Shown piece by piece: positions 5,210 to 60,779 of a DNA stretch of 64,000 bases; the first letter of the stretch is position 1; each line of letters opens with the position of its first letter. The notes below the pieces were generated by a model. That model was not told the DNA's origin. It worked only from the letters and a program-made list of their open reading frames with translations, and did not search any database. The stretch spans positions 30,893 through 94,892 of the forward strand of contig CAYFQT010000038.1 in NCBI GenBank assembly GCA_964345445.1, read 5' to 3'. The position numbers and the translations under genes are program-made. Source of the DNA: an uncultured Candidatus Saccharibacteria bacterium. GTDB taxonomy: Bacteria > Patescibacteriota > CPR2_A > CAYFQT01.

Positions 5210-5341
5210 TTGCAATAAATCCCAATTTTTCATATAATTAAACTAATTACATTAGAGAATATAATAAAAATTATTTAATTACGCTGGAGCTGTGCGAAAG
5301 CACTAATTAAATAAATATTAATACTTAATTTTATCAGAAAG

Positions 5342-13445: not shown

Positions 13446-13450
13446 ATCAT

Positions 13451-13506
13451 TCCGGGATCGTCCCTGGCCGATACGAGCTCGGCTCGAGCAGGCTAATGGT
13501 AGGACA
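13451..13506 (+). other. duplicated 5' fragment of tRNA-Gln (acceptor 5' strand plus D-arm) interrupted by a 31-nt GC-rich insert
   Basis: TCCGGGATCGTC, then the 31-nt CCTGGCCGATACGAGCTCGGCTCGAGCAGGC, then TAATGGTAGGACA, versus the intact tRNA TCCGGGGTCGTC TAATGGTAGGACA. Confidence 0.7.
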
Positions 13507-13764
13507 ATGAAAATGGAAAAGTATTATTTTTATGTTTTAAAAAGCTTAAAAGATGGAAATTTATATAAAGTGTTTACAAAAGATATCAAAAAAAGATTAA
13601 ATGAACATAATTCAGGTAAAGTAAGATCTACAAAGAATAGAAAACCATTTATTTTGGTATATAAAGAAGAATTTCAAAATAAAAATGAAGTTATTAAAAA
13701 AGAAAAATATTATAAGTCTTTAAAAGGAGGTAAAGAGTTAAATAAAATTATAAGTAATGTTTAA
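13507..13764 (+). CDS. small stand-alone GIY-YIG nuclease family protein
   Basis: YYFYVLKS...GNLYKVFT...R..EHN pattern of the GIY-YIG domain, 85 aa. Confidence 0.75.
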   Translation: MKMEKYYFYVLKSLKDGNLYKVFTKDIKKRLNEHNSGKVRSTKNRKPFILVYKEEFQNKNEVIKKEKYYKSLKGGKELNKIISNV

Positions 13765-13772
13765 GTAATCGT

Positions 13773-13843
13773 TCCGGGGTCGTCTAATGGTAGGACATCA
13801 GGTTTTGGTCCTGAAAATTGGGGTTCGAGTCCCTGCCCCGGAG
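13773..13843 (+). tRNA. tRNA-Gln (anticodon UUG)
   Basis: Manual cloverleaf: acceptor TCCGGGG/CCCCGGA with U1:A72, D-stem GTCT/GGAC, anticodon stem TCAGG/CCTGA, loop TTTTGGT (anticodon TTG), T-arm TGGGG-TTCGAGT-CCCTG, discriminator G; no encoded CCA. Confidence 0.85.
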
Positions 13844-13853
13844 TTCCGCTTAG

Positions 13854-18533: not shown

Positions 18534-18800
18534 ATTCTCCTTCTTAGACACCCACTTTTAAACTGGGGATGAATACGCAAAAAAGAAGTTTTCTGCTTTA
18601 GGGGATTTCGCAAAAAAGAAATATTAGATAACCCGGGTTTTAATTTGGGTAAGCTTCATTTATTAGTTATTAATTTAGTATTATAAAAGTTTTTATTTTG
18701 TAGTATAATTAAATAAGTTACATTAAACAATATAATAAGAATTATTTGATTACACTGGAGTGAAACAAAAGCTCTAATGTAAAGAAGGAGAATAATTATA

Positions 18801-22129: not shown

Positions 22130-22162
22130 TTTATTAGACTTTAGACCTAGGTAGATATTCAA

Positions 22163-22304
22163 TATAATCGCTCAGGGGAACGAAAATTTGCTTCTGCCCC
22201 GTAATAAAACGGGATAAACGGAACTTCTTTATCTCAGACAGCTTGCCCCGTAGGAGCAAAGGGACTTTCGGGGGCCTCGTGCACAAATTTTATTTCCTTC
22301 GCTT
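22163..22304 (+). ncRNA. conserved structured leader element, copy X (TATAATCGCTCAGGGGAACGAAAATTTGCTTCTGC ... CCTCGTGCACAAATTTTATTTCCTTCGCTT)
   Basis: The 5' 35 nt and 3' 30 nt are near-identical to copy Y at 33239-33334. AAAATTTGC and GCAAATTTT form a closing stem around a GC-rich variable core. Confidence 0.5.
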
Positions 22305-22331
22305 AAAAGATTAATTAAAAAGGACTATTGA

Positions 22332-23726
22332 ATGGCTTTTAATTTGATGGAAAAAATTGTATCCCTATGTAAACGTCGAGGTTTTATATTTCCTTCCTCT
22401 GAGATTTATGGAGGAATTGGTGGATTTTGGGATTGGGGCCCATATGGAACAGAACTTAGAAATAATATAAAAAAAGCTTGGTGGAAAAATATAGTCCAAC
22501 AGCAAGATAATATTGTAGGTTTAGAGAGTTCCATTATTTCCAATCCCAAAGTTTGGGAAGCTTCAGGCCATACATCTTCCTTTGCTGATCCTTTGGTTGA
22601 TTGCAAAAAATGCAAAAAGAGATTTAGGGCTGATCATTTAATCCAGTCAATGGAGAAAAAGGAAGATGGGGTAGTTACCTCAGCAGAGATAGAAAAACTT
22701 AAAAAGGCCTTGAAGAAAGTTAGCTGTCCTGAATGTGGAGGAGAGCTGACCCAGCCAAGAAAATTTAATCTCCTGGTTCCTACTTATATTGGAGTTATAG
22801 AAGATGAAAAGTCAAAAACTTATCTAAGAGGAGAAACCTGTCAGGGTATATTTGTAGATTATGATTTAATTAGACAGTCTAGCCGGCTGAAAATTCCCTT
22901 TGGTATTGCTCAGATTGGTAAAGCTTTTAGGAATGAAATCACCCCTGGAAATTTTGTTTTTAGGTCTCGGGAATTTGAACAGATGGAATTGGAGTTTTTT
23001 ATAAACCCCAATGATGACAAAAAATGGTTTTCCTATTGGAAAAAGCAAAGATTAAAATGGTTTTTGGATTTAGGAGTGGAAAAAAAGAATTTAAGATTTC
23101 GTGATCACAAGAAAGATGAACTTGCTCATTATGCTAAGGAAGCAACTGATATTGAATACAAATTTCCTTTTGGCTGGAAAGAACTGGAAGGTGTTGCCAA
23201 CCGTACTGATTTTGATCTAAAACAACACTCTAAATATTCTGCAAAAGATTTAAGTTATTTTGATGAAGATACTAAAAAAAGATATATACCTTATGTAATA
23301 GAGCCTTCTTTGGGAGTAGATAGAGCAGCTTTAGTATTTCTATTAGATGCTTACCATGAAGTAAAAGGCGGAAGAACAAAAACAACCGAATCAATTAAGG
23401 AAAAAGAAGTGGTTTTAAAGCTGCATAAAGATCTAACTCCAATTAAAGTAGCAATTTTGCCTCTGTTACGCAAAGACCAGCTAATAAAGAAAACCAAGGA
23501 GATTTATGATTTGATGAAGAATCATTTTATGTCTGAATATGATGAAACTGGTTCAATAGGAAAGCGCTATCGCCGTCAAGATGAAATTGGTACTCCATAT
23601 TGTGTAACTATTGATTTTGATACTTTGAATGATAAAGCCGTCACTGTCCGTGATCGAGATTCAATGGTTCAAGATAGAATAAAGATTGAAAAGTTAGTAA
23701 AATTTTTATGTGAGAAATTAGAATAA
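22332..23726 (+). CDS. glyQS: glycine--tRNA ligase (dimeric GlyQS type)
   Basis: N-terminal KRRGFIFPSSEIYGGIGGFWDWGPYG, class II aaRS core, 464 aa. Confidence 0.92.
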   Translation: MAFNLMEKIVSLCKRRGFIFPSSEIYGGIGGFWDWGPYGTELRNNIKKAWWKNIVQQQDNIVGLESSIISNPKVWEASGHTSSFADPLVDCKKCKKRFRADHLIQSMEKKEDGVVTSAEIEKLKKALKKVSCPECGGELTQPRKFNLLVPTYIGVIEDEKSKTYLRGETCQGIFVDYDLIRQSSRLKIPFGIAQIGKAFRNEITPGNFVFRSREFEQMELEFFINPNDDKKWFSYWKKQRLKWFLDLGVEKKNLRFRDHKKDELAHYAKEATDIEYKFPFGWKELEGVANRTDFDLKQHSKYSAKDLSYFDEDTKKRYIPYVIEPSLGVDRAALVFLLDAYHEVKGGRTKTTESIKEKEVVLKLHKDLTPIKVAILPLLRKDQLIKKTKEIYDLMKNHFMSEYDETGSIGKRYRRQDEIGTPYCVTIDFDTLNDKAVTVRDRDSMVQDRIKIEKLVKFLCEKLE

Positions 23727-30633: not shown

Positions 30634-32049
30634 ATGAAAAATTATTTATATAGATTTAAAAAGAAAAAAATCGCAATAGTGGGATTGGCAAAAAGTAATG
30701 TTCCTTTAATACATTTTTTACTTAAGGAAGGAATTGATAACATTACTGGTTGTGACAAAAAAGTTGAAAAAGAACTAGAAGTATTTAGTGAACTTTCAAA
30801 AATACCTATTGAATTATCCTTAGGTAGAAAATATTTGGAAGATTTACACAAGTTTGATGTGATATTTTTATCCCCTGGTGTTCCTAAAGATTTAAAAGAA
30901 ATAAAAAAAGCAAAAATTTATGGGGCTGAGATTACAAGTGAAATGAAATTGTTTTTTGATTTATGTCCGGCTGAAATTGTGGGTGTAACAGGAACAAATG
31001 GAAAATCAACAACGGTAGCATTGATAGGAGAAATATTAAAAAAATTAAAAATCAAGAAGCCAGAGGCGCCGACAACAAATAAAAAATCAAAAATATTTAT
31101 TGGGGGGAATATTGGTCAACCTTTGATTGATAAGTTAGAGAAAATCCAAAAAAAAGATCTTGTTGTTTTGGAACTTTCTTCTTTCCAATTAGAAGATTTA
31201 GCAAAGAGTCCTCATATTGCTGTAATTTTGAACATTACCCCAGATCATTTAAATCGTCATTATAAATTTTCTGATTACATTAAAGCCAAAAAAAATATTA
31301 TCAAATTTCAGAAGAAAGATGACTGGGCAATATTAAACTTTGATGATGAAATTGTTAAAAATTTTCCAAAAGACTACAAAGGAAAAGTTTTTCCTTTTAG
31401 TATAAATAAAAAATTTAAAAAAGGTGTCCAGATAGAAAATGGCTACATTACAGTAAAAAATGGTATATCTGAACAAAAAATTTGTTCAAAAAGTAGATTA
31501 AAACTTTTAGGTGGGCATAATCTGGAAAATGTATTATCTGCAACAGCTGTAGCATATTTAATAGGGGTAGAGCCTGAACAAATCAAAGAAGTTATAACTG
31601 GTTTTTCTGGTTTAGAACACAGATTAGAATTTGTATCCGAAATAAATAGAGTGAAATTTTATAATGATTCCAAAGCCACAACCTGTGAGTCTACAATTGT
31701 TGCCCTAAGATCTTTTGATTGTGGAAAAATAATTTTAATTGCTGGAGGATATGACAAGAAAGCAGATTTTTCTAAATTAGCATGTGAAATTATTAATAGC
31801 AAAGTTAAACATCTTATTTTAATAGGGGAGACTAGTGATAAAATTGCTCAAGCAATTTTACAAATCTCAAATCTCAAATCTCAAATCTCAAAATGTAAGA
31901 CTTTAAAAGAAGCAGTAAAGTTATCTAAAAAAATAAGTCAATCGGGTGACATCATTCTTCTTTCTCCAGCTTGTGCTTCTTATGATATGTTTTTAAATTT
32001 TGAAGAAAGAGGAAAGAAATTTAAACAATTGGTTAAGAAAGAGAAATAA
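30634..32049 (+). CDS. murD: UDP-MurNAc-L-Ala--D-Glu ligase
   Basis: GVTGTNGKSTT. The ORF track starts at 30538 inside mraY; MKNYLYRFKKKKIAIVG at 30634 is the likely start. Confidence 0.9.
   Translation: MKNYLYRFKKKKIAIVGLAKSNVPLIHFLLKEGIDNITGCDKKVEKELEVFSELSKIPIELSLGRKYLEDLHKFDVIFLSPGVPKDLKEIKKAKIYGAEITSEMKLFFDLCPAEIVGVTGTNGKSTTVALIGEILKKLKIKKPEAPTTNKKSKIFIGGNIGQPLIDKLEKIQKKDLVVLELSSFQLEDLAKSPHIAVILNITPDHLNRHYKFSDYIKAKKNIIKFQKKDDWAILNFDDEIVKNFPKDYKGKVFPFSINKKFKKGVQIENGYITVKNGISEQKICSKSRLKLLGGHNLENVLSATAVAYLIGVEPEQIKEVITGFSGLEHRLEFVSEINRVKFYNDSKATTCESTIVALRSFDCGKIILIAGGYDKKADFSKLACEIINSKVKHLILIGETSDKIAQAILQISNLKSQISKCKTLKEAVKLSKKISQSGDIILLSPACASYDMFLNFEERGKKFKQLVKKEK
31861..31888 (+). repeat. 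tandem heptanucleotide repeat (CAAATCT)x4 inside murD
   Basis: Exact 7-nt unit x4 encoding QISNLKSQISK near the MurD C-terminus. Confidence 0.8.
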
Positions 32050-32050
32050 T

Positions 32051-33163
32051 ATGCCCAAAGAAAAAAGAAAGCTTCATAAACCAGATTATATTTTAGCTGT
32101 TGTTGTATTTATTTTGATTATTTTTGGCTTGATTATGATTTTTTCTGCTTCACCAGTTATCTCTTATACCCAAACAGGCTCTCCTTATTACTTCTTCTGG
32201 CGACAGACTATAGCCTTAGCAGTGGGAATTATAGTTTGGGTTATTTGCTATTTAATTGATTATCATTTTTGGAAAAAAATTGCTTTGCCTCTTTTGATTT
32301 TAACTATCATTCTTTTGACAGCTATATTTATACCTCAATTGAAAGTTTGTACTGAAGAAGAAGTTTGCAGATGGATTCGTATTGGCCCAATATCATTACA
32401 GCCAGCCGAGATAGCTAAACTTACTTTTATTTTATATTTAGCGGCTTGGCTGGAAAAAAGAGGACAATATATCCGTAAATTCGTTTATGGATTTTTGCCT
32501 TTTATGATAGTATTGGGTATTATTACTTACCTAATAATGTCTGAGCCTGATTTAGGAACTATGTCAGTTATTGTGATAACAGGAATATCAATGTTTTTTG
32601 TTGCCGGTGCTTCATTACCTTATTTGATATTAGGAGGAGCTTTTGGTTGTGGTATTTTGTGGTTTTTGATTAAAAATGCTCCTTATAGAATGGAGAGATT
32701 AATGGTTTATTTAGACCCTTCAAAAGATCCACAAGGTATAGGTTACCATATCAATCAGGCTCTCTTGGCTGTTGGTTCTGGTGGAATTTTAGGATTAGGT
32801 TTTGGTCAAAGTCGTCAAAAATATAATTACTTACCTCATGCCGAAGGCGACTCTATTTTTGCTATTATTGGTGAAGAATTAGGATTTATAAGATCTTCCT
32901 TGATAATTATTATATTTTTAATTTTAGCTTGGCGAGGATTTCAAATTGCTCGTAAGGCCCCAGATATTTTTGGCAGATTAGTGGCTTGTGGAATTACTTC
33001 TTGGCTTATTTTCCAAGCTTTAATTAATATTACTGCTATGGTTGGTTTAGTTCCTTTAACAGGGATTACTTTGCCATTTATAAGTCATGGAGGGACTTCA
33101 TTAGTGATTTCTTTAGCGGGTATTGGAATTTTACTTAATATTTCTCGACAGACTGTAAGATAA
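32051..33163 (+). CDS. ftsW: SEDS-family peptidoglycan glycosyltransferase FtsW
   Basis: FtsW/RodA family, 10 TM helices. The ORF track starts at 32000; the Met at 32051 follows the murD stop. Confidence 0.9.
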   Translation: MPKEKRKLHKPDYILAVVVFILIIFGLIMIFSASPVISYTQTGSPYYFFWRQTIALAVGIIVWVICYLIDYHFWKKIALPLLILTIILLTAIFIPQLKVCTEEEVCRWIRIGPISLQPAEIAKLTFILYLAAWLEKRGQYIRKFVYGFLPFMIVLGIITYLIMSEPDLGTMSVIVITGISMFFVAGASLPYLILGGAFGCGILWFLIKNAPYRMERLMVYLDPSKDPQGIGYHINQALLAVGSGGILGLGFGQSRQKYNYLPHAEGDSIFAIIGEELGFIRSSLIIIIFLILAWRGFQIARKAPDIFGRLVACGITSWLIFQALINITAMVGLVPLTGITLPFISHGGTSLVISLAGIGILLNISRQTVR

Positions 33164-33238
33164 AAGTAATAGGAATTTTTGCCACGAAAACACCCCGAAC
33201 AACTCATTATATTCGTATACGGGGTAGGCGCAGTTGGC

Positions 33239-33334
33239 TATAATCGCTCAGGGAACCAAAAATTTGCTTCTGCGGAACTCGCTCGCTTACGCTCGCTCAA
33301 ACAGTCCTCGTGCGCAAATTTTATTCCCTTCGCT
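33239..33334 (+). ncRNA. conserved structured leader element, copy Y (between ftsW and murG)
   Basis: The same 5' TATAATCGCTCAGGGAACCAAAAATTTGCTTCTGC and 3' CCTCGTGCGCAAATTTTATTCCCTTCGCTT blocks as copy X, with a different core (CGCTCGCTTACGCTCGCTC). Confidence 0.5.
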
Positions 33335-33347
33335 TGCCGGAGTTTAT

Positions 33348-33380
33348 CCTCCGATGTTCATCGGGGGAAAGACTTTTTTC
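33348..33380 (+). terminator. intrinsic terminator/attenuator between ftsW and murG
   Basis: CCTCCGAT-GTTC-ATCGGGGG hairpin followed by AAAGACTTTTTTC. Confidence 0.45.
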
Positions 33381-33416
33381 AGGGGTGCTCTCAAACAAAA
33401 AAGGAGTATTAATTTA

Positions 33417-34523
33417 ATGAGAATCATAGTCACTGGGGGAGGGACAGCTGGACATATTTATCCTGCTTTAGCTACAGCCAAGGAATTAAAAAGAAAGGAA
33501 CCTAAAGCTTCTTTTTTATATATTGGCTCAAGAAATAAAAAAGAGAAGGAAATAGTACAAAAATCTAGTGTCCCTTATAGGAGTATTTATACTGGAAAGT
33601 TTAGAAGATACTGGAAGGAGGATTTTTTATCCTTTTTTCAAAATTTAATTGATATTTTTTTTATTATAATTGGGATTTTTCAATCACTGTGGATTATAGG
33701 TAGAGAAAGACCGAATGTGATTTTTTCCAAAGGCGGTTATGTGGGTTTACCTCCTATATTAGCAGGATGGATTCTAAGAATTCCATGTATAGTTCATGAA
33801 TCTGATGCGCAGGTAGGTTTAGCTAATAAAATATCCCTCTATTTTTGTGAAAAAATTGCTATTTCTTTTCCCCCAGAGGTTTTTCCTACCCTTCCTGTTT
33901 CTAAAGTAATTTTTACAGGAAATCCTACAAGAGAAGAGATTATAAAAGGGGACCCAGAGAAGGCACTAAGAATTTTTAAGTTAGAATCTGATTTGCCAGT
34001 TATTCTGGTTACTGGTGGAAGCCAGGGGGCTTCCAAGATTAATAAAGCAATATCCCAATCACTTCCAAATTTACTTCCTGTATGTCAAATAATTCATCTT
34101 TGTGGCGAGAAAGATTTAAGTTGGCTTCAGTCAATAAGGTCTCATTTTGATTTAAAGATGCAGAAGAGATATTATTTGGCAGGTTATCTTAAAGAAGAAA
34201 TGAAGGATGCATTGGCAAAAGCTGACTTGGTAATTTCTAGGGCAGGGGCTAATATTTTATCGGAGATTAGTTTATTAGGTAAACCGGTTATACTGATACC
34301 GCTTTTAGGACATCAATATAAAAATGCTCAATTTTTCCAGAGGAATAAAGCAGCAATTGTTATTAAAAACGAAAAACTTAATTCTCCAATTTTAATTAAA
34401 ACTATTTTAAATTTATTAAAAAGTCCTCAGCAGTTGGATATATTGAGTAAAAATATAAAAAATTTAGCTGAGCCTGAAGCAGCTTCTATCTTGGCTGAGG
34501 AGATTTTAAAAATTGCTAAATAA
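33417..34523 (+). CDS. murG: UDP-GlcNAc:undecaprenyl-PP-MurNAc-pentapeptide GlcNAc transferase
   Basis: MRIIVTGGGTAGHIYPALA N-terminus with AAGGAG SD 8 nt upstream. The ORF track's upstream extension (from 33234) covers the non-coding Y element. Confidence 0.9.
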   Translation: MRIIVTGGGTAGHIYPALATAKELKRKEPKASFLYIGSRNKKEKEIVQKSSVPYRSIYTGKFRRYWKEDFLSFFQNLIDIFFIIIGIFQSLWIIGRERPNVIFSKGGYVGLPPILAGWILRIPCIVHESDAQVGLANKISLYFCEKIAISFPPEVFPTLPVSKVIFTGNPTREEIIKGDPEKALRIFKLESDLPVILVTGGSQGASKINKAISQSLPNLLPVCQIIHLCGEKDLSWLQSIRSHFDLKMQKRYYLAGYLKEEMKDALAKADLVISRAGANILSEISLLGKPVILIPLLGHQYKNAQFFQRNKAAIVIKNEKLNSPILIKTILNLLKSPQQLDILSKNIKNLAEPEAASILAEEILKIAK

Positions 34524-38288: not shown

Positions 38289-38325
38289 AAAATAATTTGT
38301 ATTTTAAAATTTTTATATTGATAGT

Positions 38326-38414
38326 ATAGTTTTGCGAAGTAATGAAGAAGTAATGAAGGAGTACATAAGTATTATTAATTTTGAATGTTCTTTTAATTTA
38401 CTTCGCAAAACTAT
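38326..38414. repeat. 17-bp perfect inverted repeat (ATAGTTTTGCGAAGTAA / TTACTTCGCAAAACTAT) around a 55-nt loop
   Basis: The loop itself contains the direct repeat GAAGTAATGAAG x2. Confidence 0.7.
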
Positions 38415-38448
38415 CATTGTCCGACATATTTTCAAATGTAAAATAACA

Positions 38449-38478
38449 CCAGCAGAACCCCTTCCCTGCTGGTTTTTT
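38449..38478 (+). terminator. Rho-independent terminator closing the dcw operon
   Basis: CCAGCAG-AACCCCTTCC-CTGCTGG followed by TTTTTT. Confidence 0.6.
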
Positions 38479-38741
38479 ACACTAATTAAATATATTTTAT
38501 CTTAGAATTACTCTGATAAAATAATAAGACTTTTAGTAATAGAGTTTGCCAAAATTGGTGACTTTTTTAAAAAAAATTAAATTCTATCCCCTATTATGAT
38601 GAAACTTAGTATTTTTTTACTCCAGATCTCTATATTGCTGTTATATTGCTGTAGTGAGGGATTTTAATATAGTTCAGCAATAGCAATAATGTAGATTATT
38701 GAAGTGAAGGTGTTTGATTTTTAAAAAAATAATAAAAGATT

Positions 38742-39188
38742 TTAGTAGTTCACTTCCCTATCTTTCATAATCTTTCCGAAAGTCTCTTTTATTTCTTCAA
38801 AATGTTTTTCTTTTTCTTCCTTAGAATCATTTACACTATCTTTATAAAAATATACCAAAGCCAGACTTTCAGGATTGGAAGTTTCTCCTCCAAAATCTTC
38901 TGCTTTGCCGATTTCTAAAATATGATTTCCAAATTCTATCATATCTGCTTCGTGGTCAGATAGTTCTGTTATTTCATCTTGTTCAAATAATTCCATTTTT
39001 TCTATAATTTCTTCTGATTGCCAATCTACCTCTTGATTTTTTTCATAAGCCAAAGCGGAGATGAATTTCTTCAGTTCCTCAACTTCTCCTTTAATAATAA
39101 TTCTATTAAATTGTTCATCAATTTCTGGTTCTATTTCTATTTCTTCAGTTGGGTCATATTCAGAAGTAGATCCTAAATCCCCAAGCAT
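38742..39188 (-). CDS. highly acidic hypothetical protein (possible DNA-mimic-like)
   Basis: 148 aa, about 30% D/E, downstream (same strand) of the coupling-protein-like ATPase. Confidence 0.45.
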   Translation of the reverse strand: MLGDLGSTSEYDPTEEIEIEPEIDEQFNRIIIKGEVEELKKFISALAYEKNQEVDWQSEEIIEKMELFEQDEITELSDHEADMIEFGNHILEIGKAEDFGGETSNPESLALVYFYKDSVNDSKEEKEKHFEEIKETFGKIMKDREVNY

Positions 39189-39278
39189 TTTTTCCTCTCT
39201 TATTGAAGCCTAATTACATAGACTTCTCCTTTTTCGATAAAATACTTAAAGCATTTTATCAAGTAAAATGATTTAAAA

Positions 39279-39314
39279 AGCAGCTTCAATACATAAAAAG
39301 CTGCTCATTTTTTG
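39279..39314. terminator. bidirectional hairpin terminator
   Basis: AGCAGCTT-CAATACATAAA-AAGCTGCT with T-runs on both strands. Confidence 0.45.
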
Positions 39315-39629
39315 AGTTTTTTGTATAATTTTAATTTTTTTAGAAATTTTATTTTTGTTTTCATTTTTGTATAACGCAGATTAACACTGATATTATAATG
39401 TAGATTATTTTGACGCTGATTTACGCGGATATATATTATAATCGCTGAGTGCCGATTAATCGGCAGGCCCGACTGCAACGCTATGCTTGCATTAGCGGGC
39501 AGGCTACATCTTCAACATCTTGAACAAGTGAGCGGAGCGAACAATATAGCAATTTGAACATTTTATAATTATTTGTGTTTAATTTGTGCATTAAATTCGT
39601 GTTTAATTTGAGAAAGATTCCTGCTTTTT

Positions 39630-42482
39630 TCAACCAGAGTCTGATCTTCCTTTGGACGAAATTTTTACCTCTTCTCCTTCTTTCAACTCATGTGTTTTAC
39701 TTTTTTCTTTTTGTTCTTTTTCTTCAGTTACTGAGTTTTGGGTCTTTTCTTTTGAAGATGAAAGAGTATCAGAAGGTTCTGTGGGTTTATGTGATATCTT
39801 AATTTCTTCTTTTTCTTTTATTGGCCTATGATGTATTATAGAAGGCTTTGCTTCTTTTTTTTCTTCAGCTATTTCTTCTTGAGGTTTTTCTTTTACTTTT
39901 ATACCTTCTTCTTGAGTAACTTCTTCTAAAATATCTTCTGCAGTTATTCTTACCTCTGGGTATTTTTCTACTCTAATAGTTTCTCTGGGTCTTTTTTCTT
40001 TAAATTTCTGAGGTTGAGTTTCTTCTTCGTTTTCCTCTTCTGTTTCTTCTATCCCTGCCCAACGAGCAATTTTTTCTTCTACTACATTTTTTGGGGTGCT
40101 ATATCTTTCTTGTGATAAAAGAATAACCTTTTCTTTATTTTTATTTTCCCCTTTGAGTGGAGGTAAAGTTTGAGCAGAAAAAGCAGGAGAAGTTACCCCA
40201 TTAATAGCAAGTTTTAAATAAATATTATATTTATCCAAATTTACTATATCAGTTTCATCAAAGACTGGGGCTACTTCTTTGGCTAAGAATGTTGCATCTG
40301 CTGCGCCTACTCTAAAGGAAATTAATGTTCCAATATTGCCAAAAACAGCATCACGAACTACTTCAGGCATTTGGGCTATATATTGGTTAGCTACTATTAA
40401 ATTTAATCCATATTTTCTTGCTTCAGATAATATTTTGGCAAATGATTCAGTAGCAAAGTTTTGAAACTCATCAACATATAGATAAAAATCTTTTCTCTGT
40501 TTTTCTGGGATGTCTACTCGACTCATAGCTGCTAACTGGAGTTTAGTAATCATCATTGCTCCTAAAAGAGAAGAATTGTCTTCCCCTATAGTTCCTTGAG
40601 CTAATTTGATTAATAATATTTTTCCTGAATCAATAACTTCTCGCATATCGATAGTGCTTTTAGGCTGCCCTATAATGTTTCTTATTGTTGCCGAAGATAT
40701 AAACTGCCCTACTTTGTTTTGAATTGGAGAAATTGCTTCTGTTACTAAACGAGGATTTGATTGATATCCAGGAAACTCTTGAGTCCAAAATCTTTTTACT
40801 TCTATATCGGTAATTTTCTTAACCACTTTTTTTCTAAATTTTTTATCAGTAAGCATTCGATTTACTGATAACATTGTAGAATTAGGATAATCTAACAAAG
40901 CTAATAAAGTATTTCTTAAAATATGTTCTAATCTAGGACCCCAGGTGAAAGCCCAGATTTTTTGAAAAATGGAAATTAATCCTGAACATATCAACCCTTT
41001 ATAGTCAGGGTCCACAGCTTCTAGTGGATTGAAAGCAATAGGATATTCTCGATCAGAAGGATCAAAGATAATTACATCATTTATTCTTTCAGAGGGAATG
41101 AAATTTAATATATCGTCAATTAGGTCTCCATGAGGGTCCACTACTCCTACTCCTTTTCCTGCTCGGATATCAGAAATAGCCATATTTCTCAACATATTAG
41201 TCTTGCCCATCCCAGTTTTACCAATTAAATACATATGTTTTCTTCTGTCATCAGTTTTTATTCCAAATTTTTGTCTTATATGTCTAAAGTTTGTCTCGGC
41301 AAATAAAGTTAGTTCGCTAGATGGAATAACTTTTTCTTCAATTGGTAAGTTATCAGGAGGTTCTCCTTTTTTAGATTTTGTCCAAGCGATTGTGGGAGTT
41401 TCTACTCCTATAGTTGGAAGATGAAATATTGAAGCTAATTCTTCAGTATTTAAAACAAAGCCAGAGTCGGAAAACAAACGTGCTTTATAGTCTTGAAGAA
41501 AATTTTCACCTTCATAAGTTTTGTCTGATTTGAAACCATTTAGGTTAGCGGTTGAAAATTGTTTAAATGTTCCAATAAGAGATTGAAGATGAGGATTTAC
41601 AATTTGTCCTTTCTTGCAAACATATGCTGCTCTTATTTTTGTATCAAAACCAAGTTTGGATACTTTTTCCTCAATAGCCGAAAGCTGAGTCTCTTGAGCA
41701 GATGAGAGTTGAGGAGGTCCGGAGGCACTTTCTTCAGTGGTTCCTGGTGTAATCAAAGAAGTAATTTGTCCTAAAACTTTAGCTAAAAATCCAAAAGCTG
41801 TTCCTATGCCAAAAGCTTCTGGGTTTCCACCAGCTTTTACTATGTCTATATAAGAAAGACCTTTTTTTTGCCATTCTTCCCCTGAAGGACGAACGAGTAT
41901 TTGAATCCAAATTTGTTCATTATTTTCTTTTAATTTTCCTAAAACCCCAGTGATTCCTGCCAGAGGATCTACTTCGAAATCAGGAAAGGTTTTAATAGGA
42001 AAAAAATCTAATTTGTTTAAGAGAAGTTGAGTGCCCATAATTTGTTTTTCTTTTAAATCAATCTCAGTGTAATCAGGTACTTTTTCAATTTCTACTTCAG
42101 GATATTGGGCATAAATTTGTCCTTCCACAAAATCTCTTAGATGTTCTGGAACCCAAATAAAAAATCCAATTTTTCCATTTGTTGAAGCAATTTCAAAACT
42201 AATGTGTTCTTGTAATGTTCCTTCCAGAAATCTTTTTTTAGTAGGTTTATAAATTCCATGTAGAGAAGCAAACATCATTTCTGCTGCAGTAGGTCCTTTT
42301 TCATTTTCTTTTGGAATATACAAAGATAAAAGAACGTATTTTTGTTGAGAAACCCAGTTTAATTTTCTACGGCTTAAAAAAGACAAAAATAAAAGTAGAG
42401 GTACTAGAAACCATATACCCCAAAATAAAAATTTACCAGTTTGTGGTAATATTTGGCTTAAAATTTTAAATAAGCCTTCCAT
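39630..42482 (-). CDS. membrane-anchored P-loop NTPase of the type IV coupling protein (TraD/TraG/VirD4; FtsK-HerA superfamily) type, with long Glu/Lys-rich C-terminal tail
   Basis: N-terminal TM (FLFWGIWFLVPLLLFLSFL), Walker A GKTGMGKT, Walker B YLYVDEFQNF about 240 aa later, ANQYIAQ block, 220-aa low-complexity EK-rich tail. Confidence 0.7.
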   Translation of the reverse strand: MEGLFKILSQILPQTGKFLFWGIWFLVPLLLFLSFLSRRKLNWVSQQKYVLLSLYIPKENEKGPTAAEMMFASLHGIYKPTKKRFLEGTLQEHISFEIASTNGKIGFFIWVPEHLRDFVEGQIYAQYPEVEIEKVPDYTEIDLKEKQIMGTQLLLNKLDFFPIKTFPDFEVDPLAGITGVLGKLKENNEQIWIQILVRPSGEEWQKKGLSYIDIVKAGGNPEAFGIGTAFGFLAKVLGQITSLITPGTTEESASGPPQLSSAQETQLSAIEEKVSKLGFDTKIRAAYVCKKGQIVNPHLQSLIGTFKQFSTANLNGFKSDKTYEGENFLQDYKARLFSDSGFVLNTEELASIFHLPTIGVETPTIAWTKSKKGEPPDNLPIEEKVIPSSELTLFAETNFRHIRQKFGIKTDDRRKHMYLIGKTGMGKTNMLRNMAISDIRAGKGVGVVDPHGDLIDDILNFIPSERINDVIIFDPSDREYPIAFNPLEAVDPDYKGLICSGLISIFQKIWAFTWGPRLEHILRNTLLALLDYPNSTMLSVNRMLTDKKFRKKVVKKITDIEVKRFWTQEFPGYQSNPRLVTEAISPIQNKVGQFISSATIRNIIGQPKSTIDMREVIDSGKILLIKLAQGTIGEDNSSLLGAMMITKLQLAAMSRVDIPEKQRKDFYLYVDEFQNFATESFAKILSEARKYGLNLIVANQYIAQMPEVVRDAVFGNIGTLISFRVGAADATFLAKEVAPVFDETDIVNLDKYNIYLKLAINGVTSPAFSAQTLPPLKGENKNKEKVILLSQERYSTPKNVVEEKIARWAGIEETEEENEEETQPQKFKEKRPRETIRVEKYPEVRITAEDILEEVTQEEGIKVKEKPQEEIAEEKKEAKPSIIHHRPIKEKEEIKISHKPTEPSDTLSSSKEKTQNSVTEEKEQKEKSKTHELKEGEEVKISSKGRSDSG

Positions 42483-43698: not shown

Positions 43699-43795
43699 TT
43701 TTCTAATGTAATTACTTAATTAGTGCTTCCACTTTGTTACAGCGTAATTAAGTAATTTTCTATTATATTTTCTAATGTAATTACTTAATTATAGC
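43699..43795 (-). promoter_or_regulatory. duplicated promoter/operator region: 26-nt direct repeat x2 plus a third copy of the 57-nt conserved promoter-leader module
   Basis: TATTTTCTAATGTAATTACTTAATTA at 43699-43724 and 43768-43793. The reverse complement of 43742-43795 matches the modules upstream of gtrA and gdh. Confidence 0.55.
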
Positions 43796-49115: not shown

Positions 49116-49577
49116 ATTTTCCTCCCTCGTCGAAGTAAACTTCAAGCTTTGGCGATCCCACAAAGTAGAATCGCTCTCGCTTTTCGTTCACTTCTCCTCT
49201 TTTGGCAAAATACTTTAGTATTTTGCTTAGTGAAATATTAAAAATCTCAGTTTCCATTCCAAAATCACCTTGGTGTTTCTTGGTGTTTAAAGCTTCCGCT
49301 TATTTCTTCTCTCCGTTAAAATGCTAAAATATTTTAACAGGCTTTTTTGATAATAATTATTCCTTTGTGGGGTCGAAGGCCCCGACGACTCGCTTCGGAT
49401 CGCCCGAATCGAGGCGAGAACACAAGTGGATGTCGGGACAACTTTCATTATTTATATTCATTGTAAAAATTGAAGCCCTATCGTAACACAAGTGGATAAA
49501 AGGACAATTTCTTTTGTTAAATTAGTTAAATTACCATTTATTCTATTCTACTTTAATTCTTTTTTTTGTGCAAATTT

Positions 49578-51224: not shown

Positions 51225-51448
51225 CTAAGTTCACTTTTTGGTTTAATATATAGCTTATAGAAAAAATTCATTTAATTTATCTGAAGGCAGTCTTTGAGAA
51301 AACCATATCGCAGCCCCCCCAAATAAATCTTCACCTTAGAAAAACTTTAGATGGGGAGGTGAGATCTGAGTAGCGCCTGGGGCAAGCCTATCAAAATTAT
51401 TCAATTAGAGGCGACTGCGTGTTTTCGAGGTGGATAAAATCTTGTAGA

Positions 51449-57545: not shown

Positions 57546-57665
57546 TTTAACCTCCTGAGGTCTCTGTTATCCATTCATTACAGAGGCCGAGGCCCTATCG
57601 GAACCGGAGGTGGATGATAGGGCATTATTATTTTATTACTTAATAATAAGTGTTTGATGGGACTT
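57546..57665 (-). ncRNA. conserved two-hairpin 5' leader, copy L1
   Basis: More than 85% identical to L2 at 59878-60003. Hairpin 1 is GCCCTATC..(16-nt loop)..GATAGGGC, hairpin 2 is GGCCTCTGT..ACAGAGACC, then GGAGG SD. The hairpin-1 loop CCACCTCC is complementary to the SD. Confidence 0.55.
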
Positions 57666-59877: not shown

Positions 59878-60003
59878 TTTTTAACCTCCCGAGGTCTCTG
59901 TTTACCCATTCATTACAGAGACCGAGGCCCTATCGAAACTGGAAGTGAATGATAGGGCATTATTATTTGTTATTATTATCCTTAATAATTAGTGGATGAT
60001 GGG
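59878..60003 (-). ncRNA. conserved two-hairpin 5' leader, copy L2
   Basis: Same architecture as L1: GCCCTATC/GATAGGGC and GGTCTCTGT/ACAGAGACC stems; loop CACTTCC pairs with the SD GGGAGGT. Confidence 0.55.
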
Positions 60004-60462: not shown

Positions 60463-60779
60463 TTAAATCTCCAGAGAAATAGATAATAATTACTAATTAA
60501 ATTTTACCATTCTAATTGAATAATTACAATAAAAAATATAATAATAGATTATTTAATTATAATTCATTTAATTTTTCTAAAACAGGCAAAGAGATATCAA
60601 TTAGGTCTTTAGTGTCGCTTCTGTTTAATTCTGCTAAGCTACCTTTTGGTTTACAAAGAAATAAAAGTTCTATTATAGCTCTATAAAGTTCTGGAGTTAT
60701 GATTTTGTTGTCTTTTAATTCCTCAGCTATATTTATTGGATCTCTTTCTTTAGATTGAGGTAATTTTTTATTTTGTATT

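Follow-up and report, generated by a model that had tools for sequence, protein, structure and literature searches.

The 64,000-nucleotide stretch analysed here (the window, from contig CAYFQT010000038.1 of an uncultured Candidatus Saccharibacteria bacterium) raises a question upstream of glyS, the glycyl-tRNA synthetase (GlyRS) gene: what is the structured sequence that fills this spacer (copy X) and returns, with a shorter core, between ftsW and murG (copy Y)? The original prediction hesitated between a miniature inverted-repeat element and a novel leader RNA. On comparison of the sequences, there is about an even chance that X and Y are the long and the short subtype of a lineage-specific, non-coding dispersed repeat family of a Patescibacteria clade. 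Such a family would be new but of a known kind, similar to Correia elements and REPINs and a member of neither family. Replicative spread fits because the unit is dispersed, is absent from the closest relative, is nested in an older motif, shows uncompensated decay of its inner stems and keeps an invariant basal helix. Genomes of Patescibacteria (ultra-small bacteria of the Candidate Phyla Radiation, CPR) have a reputation for being compact and carrying little mobile DNA, and next to nothing is known of how their genes are regulated; literature searches brought up no description of a small dispersed repeat, or of a structured RNA motif between genes, in this phylum.

The two copies were found where they had been predicted, and the coordinates and both end alignments were confirmed. 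Their 5' ends, TATAATCGCTCAGGG(GAACG/AACCA)AAAATTTGCTTCTGC, are identical at 32 of 35 nt, and their 3' ends, CCTCGTGC(A/G)CAAATTTTATT(T/C)CCTTCGCTT, at 29 of 31 nt. A 20-nt 3' pattern has exactly two matches in the window for 0.01 expected by chance, and a two-ended pattern has two for 0.00 expected; pattern, nhmmer and covariance-model searches of the 64 kb gave no third copy. AAAATTTGC and GCAAATTTT, proposed as exact reverse complements closing a stem, are indeed so and pair in all predicted folds. The cores differ in length as announced (77 nt in X, 32 nt in Y), but calling them variable was wrong, as there are two subtypes, each conserved between genomes. The long form (130-141 nt) carries at its apex the stems P2 (CCCG/CGGG), P3 and P4 (CCCCG/CGGGG), whereas the short form (96-108 nt) is devoid of P2 and P4, has only a P3 remnant and keeps GGAACT ... 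CTCA(A/G)ACAG.

Over all copies, the unit spans about 95-140 nt plus an AT-rich tail of about 22 nt, and the common alignment reads TATAAT-CGCTCAGGGAAC-GAAAATTTGC-TTCTGC ... CCTCGTGC-GCAAATTTT-GTTCCC-TTCGCTT. The box at the 5' edge is TATAAT in X, Y and L008, CATAAT in L012 and TATAAC in L014 (loci of other genomes bear L numbers). The ends pair as an imperfect basal helix of 17 bp (P0, 2 bp; P1a, 6 bp; P1b, 9 bp). Its strands GC, AGGGAA and AAAATTTGC and those opposite them are set apart by a bulge and a 2x2 loop. The outermost bases, TATAAT on one side and the AT-rich tail on the other, are not inverted repeats. In this helix, 97% of the cells are paired across copies, and no compensatory change was seen in any of the 17 pairs; RNAalifold gives a covariation term of +0.42, the test being weak with sequences so similar. 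The inner arms GCTTCTGC and CCTCGTGC are unrelated, so the unit is directional; the inner junctions are asymmetric. L009 folds cleanly (-49 kcal/mol, z = -5.0) with well-formed P2-P4, while the fold of X has a z of about 0; P3 of X and P4 of L008 have lost pairs with no compensating change, which looks like decay of these copies. The tail AAAAGAT.TATTA.TTATTGGA is common to L008, L009 and L012 and partly found in X. The terminator scan flags neither X nor Y themselves as an intrinsic terminator.

A coding role was rejected in view of the indels between subtypes and of the murG start set by homology. The murG frame is open upstream through all of Y (33234-33416), and gene callers may add 61 codons with a TTG start. 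The listed start at 33234 is such an artefact, homologues starting at the ATG at 33417. Likewise, the glyS start at 22332 is fixed by homology with L001 and L014.

Copies in other genomes were sought by a metagenome scan with the two-ended pattern and by synteny look-ups in relatives. The scan returned seven loci, of which L007 and L010 are chance matches and five are real copies representing three distinct sequences. A fourth sequence, L014, was reached by synteny and not by the pattern, and is the only unbiased copy. In total, the search of the conserved ends in relatives that had been suggested yielded four more distinct copies, all in related Patescibacteria, next to different genes, and sharing both ends and cores. 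In both L008 and L009, the TATAA box contains the stop codon of the preceding gene (TAA in L008). No more, or more divergent, copies were detected by nhmmer and the covariance model in about 241 kb of related loci. Species-representative genomes, a collection that excludes the source genome, were scanned with the 3' 21-mer and gave three chance matches only, in unrelated bacteria; scans of viral contigs gave nothing or one chance match, and no sign of a phage vector. The element is short (96-141 nt), non-coding, multi-copy (two copies in the window, four others) and set among unrelated neighbours, as is a miniature inverted-repeat transposable element (MITE).

These copies also bear on the simplest alternative, a chance resemblance or a strong-promoter consensus followed by unrelated sequence, of which the original prediction had warned. 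The window holds 162 TATAAT hexamers, and the extension CGCT(C/G)AG follows only three of them, in X, in Y and at 39437. There, TATAATCGCT(C/G)AG precedes unrelated GC-rich sequence, as this alternative would have it. It is nevertheless almost certainly wrong: the 3' ends show no less conservation than the 5' ends (0.01 chance matches expected), conservation between genomes extends to the cores, nhmmer gives E-values of 1e-17 to 1e-43, and the additional copies, which share both ends and cores, already refute it. The 13-nt fragment TATAATCGCTGAG is present at 39437-39449 as reported, but its likeness to X and Y is limited to the TATAAT box and the seven following bases. This site was rejected as a third copy, sharing only TATAATCGCTSAG, and nhmmer and the covariance model find no further element there. 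On the plus strand at 39437-39545, where the genes on both sides are encoded by the other strand, GC-rich hairpins (GCCGATTAATCGGC; GCCCG..CGGGC) with no Rfam match come after TATAATCGCTGAG; this region may be an antisense or independent small RNA.

The orthologous loci of relatives were then compared. The closest GlyRS among 5.8 billion proteins is 84% identical (L001), and its contig is syntenic with the window (recO-x-glyS-mraZ ... ftsW-murG) but has neither X nor Y. Instead, it carries a different two-hairpin leader upstream of glyS and a 205-nt structured motif, M, in the ftsW-murG spacer. M alone occupies that spacer in L020, a relative with 67% MurG identity, and in L025 (67% GlyRS identity) the spacers measure 62 nt before glyS and 1 nt between ftsW and murG. 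Hence, between species, both loci are empty of the element in L001 and L025, and the ftsW-murG locus also in L020. In the window, M survives as a 5' part (GCCACGAAAACAC, GCAGTTGGCT) and as a 3' part made of the hairpin, the U tract and the tail, with a 36-nt insert and Y between them. Since M is intact in L001 and L020 and its halves flank Y, Y is a derived insertion in an older spacer. The original prediction had described a 255-nt gap here, and an intrinsic terminator after Y. The gap is in fact 253 nt (33164-33416), and the terminator-like hairpin exists but belongs to the resident motif and not to Y, because it matches hairpin 2 and the U tract of M in the relatives. The spacer thus reads as nested insertions, with 1 nt in one relative, M in others and M plus Y in the window, and the element family provides a marker for recent genome change.

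Motif M itself consists of CGAAAACAC-GCAGT, hairpin 1, TCAGATCTC, a GC-rich hairpin 2 and CTGCGATATGGTTTTC. It was located in the window at 51296-51427 (minus strand), upstream of a PIN-domain gene, and in the ftsW-murG spacer of two relatives (L001, 20808-20946; L020, about 95-225). Its closing helix changes from GAAAAC/GUUUUC to AAAAAG/CUUUUU in L020, a compensatory change, and it has no Rfam match. An apparent M match in L009 (3270-3283) is coding sequence.

A further insertion was found at queA. In L012 (1091-1501), the last 93 nt of this gene occur twice (about 92% identical) and flank a 229-nt block with the short-form element, in the order normal queA end, 55 nt, element, 48 nt and second queA end; the inserted block amounts to about 322 nt including the second gene end. 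The downstream 93-nt copy is contiguous with a spacer conserved at the empty site L023 (3961-4160; 75% QueA identity) and is therefore the original end. As the gene end is duplicated around the block, the inserted block either carried a replacement gene end with it or gave rise to one. Inside the block, an inverted pair, GGTAGGTTC / GAAGCCTACC, was noticed post hoc.

The copies are 85-97% identical (Y and L014, 92%; Y and L012, 97%; X and L008, 92%; X and L009, 88%). For comparison, the GlyRS proteins of the window and of L014 are 73% identical, and the four-fold sites of their genes are 56% identical (58/104), near saturation. The pattern used for three foreign copies forced identity at 24 inner-arm bases; the inner arms of L014 are invariant too. 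The copy linked to glyS in L014 has a core like that of Y at murG and not like that of X at glyS.

Such identity, far above neutral expectation, could also be that of a reused cis-regulatory leader RNA, riboswitch-like or a protein-binding site, controlling glyS, murG and ligA through a global signal. The junction nucleotides UUCUGC, GGAACU, CAGACAG and CCUCGUGC would form its functional core, P2 and P4 would be optional peripheral stems, and the 3' strand of P1 (UUCCC/UUCCU) would switch from P1 to the Shine-Dalgarno region, or to the terminator 3' of the element in the case of Y, and back. Optional stems are found in many riboswitch classes, a terminator lies 3' of Y, the multi-stem fold of L009 is clean, and a copy stands upstream of glyS in the window and in the 73% relative L014. 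In the latter, the Shine-Dalgarno region AAGGAACGAA repeats the P1 5' strand exactly, the P1 3' strand being anti-Shine-Dalgarno-like. Yet the genes downstream are unrelated (glyS twice, murG, ligA, a small membrane open reading frame (ORF) and a queA remnant), and P1 has the same sequence in all copies with zero compensatory pairs, whereas P1 stems of riboswitches normally covary. Moreover, P3 is disrupted in X, as is P4 in L008, with nothing to compensate, the closest relative has the element at neither locus, Y interrupts another conserved motif, and the two glyS copies differ in subtype, L014 being nearer to Y (92%) than to the X core. A leader RNA is accordingly a possibility that we place on the improbable side. 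The novel leader RNA put forward originally is thus weakened by its inconsistent downstream genes, the lack of covariation and the uncompensated decay, while the L014 glyS copy and the orientation of the copies speak for it.

Known RNA families provide no support either. At X and Y, Rfam gave no match at the gathering threshold or at E<=5 on the window, nor at E<=10 on the isolated regions, and on the window it found only a tRNA-Gln. T-boxes, glycine and other riboswitches, known ribozymes, 6S and SRP RNAs were rejected on this ground, even permissive E-values giving no match. The T-box model RF00230 in particular was silent in all these settings, in line with the earlier statement that the glyS copy is not a classical T-box; the copies also precede murG, ligA, the small membrane ORF and the queA remnant, which is not a T-box-type gene association. 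As in glyQS T-box leaders, a structured GC-rich leader with a P1-like closing helix stands directly upstream of a glycyl-tRNA synthetase gene. Unlike T-box and riboswitch leaders, the element has no covariance-model match, unrelated downstream genes and no stem covariation. A more specific version of the leader hypothesis, which we judge unlikely, makes the element one of several leader cassettes reused or swapped upstream of essential genes. It would be a new class of structured cis-regulatory RNA, with invariant junction nucleotides binding a global ligand or protein and a toggling P1 3' strand; motif M, a two-hairpin leader with an ATCCAC loop and a promoter cassette containing TAATTACGCTGGAGC would be the other swapped cassettes. 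Should the element prove to be a regulatory RNA, it would represent a class of RNA not seen before, acting on essential genes of a phylum without cultivated members.

Each of the six distinct copies has the direction of the genes on both of its sides. Such agreement has a two-sided p of about 0.03 if orientation is random, and it points to an RNA-level constraint or to strand-specific insertion, the two being not separable here. In the window, the sign of the GC skew changes at about 38-39 kb (38289-39629), probably the replication terminus, and gene orientation converges there. All window genes therefore run with replication, and orientation relative to genes is inseparable from orientation relative to replication, because all of these genes follow the GC skew.

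The element could, alternatively, be an independent trans-acting small RNA gene of about 90-135 nt, in two paralogous copies with their own TATAAT promoter. Indeed, most copies have a constant spacing between the TATAAT box and the basal helix, an intrinsic terminator follows Y, and sequence conservation between genomes is high. This is very unlikely, however: no terminator separates X, L008 or L014 from the start codon that follows, so that transcripts would enter the gene, and the terminator after Y is part of the older spacer motif. Furthermore, the -35 is weak or absent in Y and most other copies, the TATAAC of L014 misses the most conserved T of a -10 box, and the genomic position differs between close relatives.

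Within the mobile-element explanation, a special case would be a folded recombination site resembling the attC site of integrons, or a strict REP/RAYT hairpin. The ends are conserved, imperfectly paired and with bulged bases, the apex varies in length, and the copies follow stop codons directly and are always co-oriented with genes. AAC...GTT stands at the helix base in L008, L009 and L014. Post hoc, a GTAG tetranucleotide was seen on the 5' side of four copies, 12-18 nt away from X, Y and L009 and 52 nt away from L012, where the inverted GGTAGGTTC / GAAGCCTACC pair was also noted. The R-box consensus of attC is RYYYAAC / GTTRRRY. The helix base of the element, RRRAAC / GTTYYY, is the opposite; besides, the neighbours are syntenic housekeeping genes and not cassettes, the copies are single sites and form no arrays, the asymmetric inner arms make no doublet of one REP sequence, and the window encodes no integrase or Y1 transposase. 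We consider this special case quite unlikely.

Returning to a dispersed repeat family, several results weigh against it. No flanking direct repeat was found at any of the six copies, so the target-site duplications that the original prediction proposed to look for are missing, the only duplication being that of the queA end around the larger L012 block. No transposase, RAYT or integrase was recognised by Pfam among the approximately 50 ORFs of the window, and only two copies are known in this genome, from 64 kb. The ends are only an imperfect inverted repeat with asymmetric inner junctions. The invariance of the inner arms is partly ascertainment, because the scan pattern fixed these arms in three of the four foreign copies. 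No clean pair of empty and filled sites at near-identical sequence was obtained. Finally, two genomes whose GlyRS differ by 27% both have a copy at the same place upstream of glyS, a recurrence more simply explained by vertical inheritance of a functional leader. The unit is therefore not a textbook MITE, as it has no target-site duplications and an imperfect terminal inverted repeat; still, a miniature repeat element, as proposed, is the reading that fits best, the unit being absent from orthologous spacers of the closest relative, set among unrelated neighbours in other genomes and nested in M.

The closest parallels are offered by Correia elements and REPINs. Correia elements (CREE) of Neisseria occur in size classes of 153-157 and 104-108 bp, and their first six bases can act as a -10 box with a native -35, as first shown in a dcw cluster (PMC2649163). 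They and the element are alike in being small (about 100-155 bp) and non-coding, with conserved inverted ends around a directional core, and in falling into discrete long and short classes differing by internal segments (PMC2649163). The element also resembles them in abutting or overlapping start or stop codons and in having no transposase of its own (PMC2649163). Another likeness lies in the first six bases, which in X, Y and L008 form a TATAAT -10 box of predicted promoter activity. Correia elements are co-transcribed, and their inverted repeats form hairpins that are RNase III substrates in mRNA (PMC2649163); the present unit would likewise be co-transcribed with its neighbours, given its orientation. 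Unlike the element, Correia elements duplicate their target site, have a more symmetric inverted repeat of 26 bp and number more than 100 copies per genome in both orientations, compared with two copies in 64 kb and co-orientation of six out of six here. There is no sequence similarity between the two, and the host belongs to Patescibacteria and not to Neisseria.

REPINs combine two invariant ends with a less conserved spacer and form a hairpin (PMC3116915). The element resembles this layout in its conserved ends, its variable apex and its long hairpin in single-stranded DNA or mRNA (PMC3116915). It is likewise extragenic, and in both cases the units stay near a master sequence within lineages for long and a target duplication is not required. 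A REPIN is, however, a symmetric doublet of one REP, whereas the inner arms GCTTCTGC and CCTCGTGC are unrelated; REPIN hairpins show compensatory changes (PMC3116915), of which there are none here; and the spacer of the element falls in two conserved subtypes, with no RAYT gene in the window. More broadly, ERIC, BOX, RUP and MITEs are, as is the element, short non-coding intergenic units; according to reviews (PMC2229807, PMC10969869), such repeats have stable RNA folds, are frequently part of neighbouring transcripts and may influence the expression of adjacent genes. MITEs differ by their perfect terminal inverted repeats, target-site duplications and cognate insertion sequence (IS) element, which are not found here, the last within the window.

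If the dispersed repeat family is real, genome comparison suggests that its units would insert in intergenic spacers or at gene 3' ends, always along transcription, and would be held near one master sequence across genomes whose synonymous sites are saturated. The units would be non-autonomous, and a trans-acting enzyme recognising the ends could copy them, as in REPIN/RAYT or Correia systems and unlike an ancient riboswitch. Judging from orientation, the units would be co-transcribed with their neighbours, and their first six bases could supply a -10 box, as Correia elements do with their "Snyder promoter". A promoter role is plausible for X on the basis of TTTAGA, a 17-nt spacing and TATAAT; it is less plausible for Y, where the consensus scan gave no -35 comparable to that of X, and for L014 with its TATAAC. 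An RNA initiated 6-8 nt 3' of the box would begin exactly at the basal helix. The resulting 5'-terminal or intercistronic hairpin could alter mRNA stability, processing or read-through of glyS and murG. If a -10 box or an mRNA hairpin does come from the element, essential genes at its two sites (glyS and the dcw cell-wall cluster) would be expressed differently. The parts of both copies, their surroundings and the copies of other genomes are gathered in Table 1.

Table 1. Features of copies X and Y and of the spacers that hold them (window coordinates), the site at 39437, and the copies found in other genomes.
Feature	Position	Strand	Remarks
Weak -35-like hexamer TTTAGA	22140-22145	+	native sequence; 17 nt 5' of the X TATAAT; 10/12 matches in consensus scan
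Copy X	22163-22304	+	between a 121-aa ORF and glyS (ATG at 22332)
X, TATAAT (-10-like box)	22163-22168	+	first six bases of X
X, 5' arm CGCTCAGGGGAACGAAAATTTGCTTCTGC	22169-22197	+	5' strands of P0, P1a and P1b, then junction UUCUGC; from copy alignments
X, core, long subtype	22198-22274	+	P2 CCCG/CGGG 22198-22213; P3, degenerate, 22220-22247; P4 CCCCG/CGGGG 22246-22273
X, 3' arm CCTCGTGCACAAATTTTATTTCCTTCGCTT	22275-22304	+	3' strands of P1b, P1a and P0
AT-rich 3' tail AAAAGATTAATTA...	22305-22331	+	includes ribosome-binding site AAAGGA; up to glyS ATG 22332
glyS, single-chain glycyl-tRNA synthetase, 464 aa	22332-23726	+	downstream of X; Pfam tRNA-synt_2b, HGTP_anticodon
ftsW	32000-33163	+	upstream of Y; Pfam FTSW_RODA_SPOVE, E = 2.5e-102
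5' remnant of motif M (GCCACGAAAACAC)	33181-33193	+	alignment with L001, L020 and window 51225-51448
36-nt insertion (CCCGAAC...GGGGTAGGC)	33194-33229	+	absent from the M motif of relatives
GCAGTTGGCT, 5' half of M hairpin 1	33230-33239	+	last base is the first T of Y
Copy Y, short subtype	33239-33335	+	between ftsW (ends 33163) and murG (ATG at 33417)
Y, parts	33239-33335	+	TATAAT 33239-33244; 5' arm 33245-33273; core 33274-33305; 3' arm 33306-33335
Terminator-like hairpin and T run, 3' of Y	33347-33380	+	M hairpin 2 and U tract; alignment with L020
3' tail of M (AAAGACTTTTTTCAGGGGTGCTCTCAAAC)	33368-33396	+	immediately 5' of the ribosome-binding site of murG; scores 68 in a local alignment with L020
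murG	33417-34523	+	downstream of Y; true start ATG 33417, from homologous starts in L001 and L020
TATAATCGCTGAG	39437-39449	+	shares with X and Y only the -10 box and seven bases after it; not an element copy
L008 (= L011), long form			directly after a pfkB-like kinase gene, before an 87-aa membrane ORF
L009, long form			ligA start about 155 nt downstream
L012 (= L013 = L021), short form			after queA
L014 (= L015), short form			upstream of glyS in the 73% GlyRS relative; the window has the long form at that place

The rest of the window (G+C content of 30.5%) carries housekeeping genes of a Patescibacteria (CPR) bacterium, with dnaX, dnaB, recR, corA, cysS, gdh, recO, glyS, the dcw cluster from mraZ to ftsQ and rtcB among others, and it contains other repeats. 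A second family consists of a two-hairpin 5' leader with a first loop ATCCAC(T/C) and a linker CCTTCGA/CCTCGG. It was found in the window at 49353-49439, 57567-57633 and 59902-59968, all on the minus strand, the copies at 57.6 and 59.9 kb being 91% identical. The genes that follow these leaders directly code for a bactofilin-domain protein, a response regulator and a 95-aa product that weakly matches EF-Tu domain 2, and a further leader (L001, 9920-9995) stands upstream of glyS in the 84% relative. A promoter/leader cassette, TATAATTAAAT..ATTACATTAGA.AATATAATA..TAATTACGCTGGAGC..GCACTAATTA, is reused upstream of at least three window genes. Its sites are 5226-5327, 18697-18798, 43709-43791 (minus strand) and 60513-60559 in the window, about 1290-1360 in L014 and about 6560-6634 in L001, the last upstream of gdh, where the cassette is conserved in three genomes.

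At 13446-13844, a degenerate 5' half of tRNA-Gln (TCCGGGATCGTC, 31 nt, CTAATGGTAGGACA) directly precedes an 85-aa GIY-YIG ORF (13507-13764), which is followed by the intact tRNA-Gln at 13772-13844; the arrangement resembles what a GIY-YIG-associated insertion at a tRNA gene would leave behind. Two genes for TraG/TrwB-like coupling proteins (26-667 and 39630-42482, the latter on the minus strand) lie in this otherwise housekeeping region, and a gene related to them adjoins glyS in L027.

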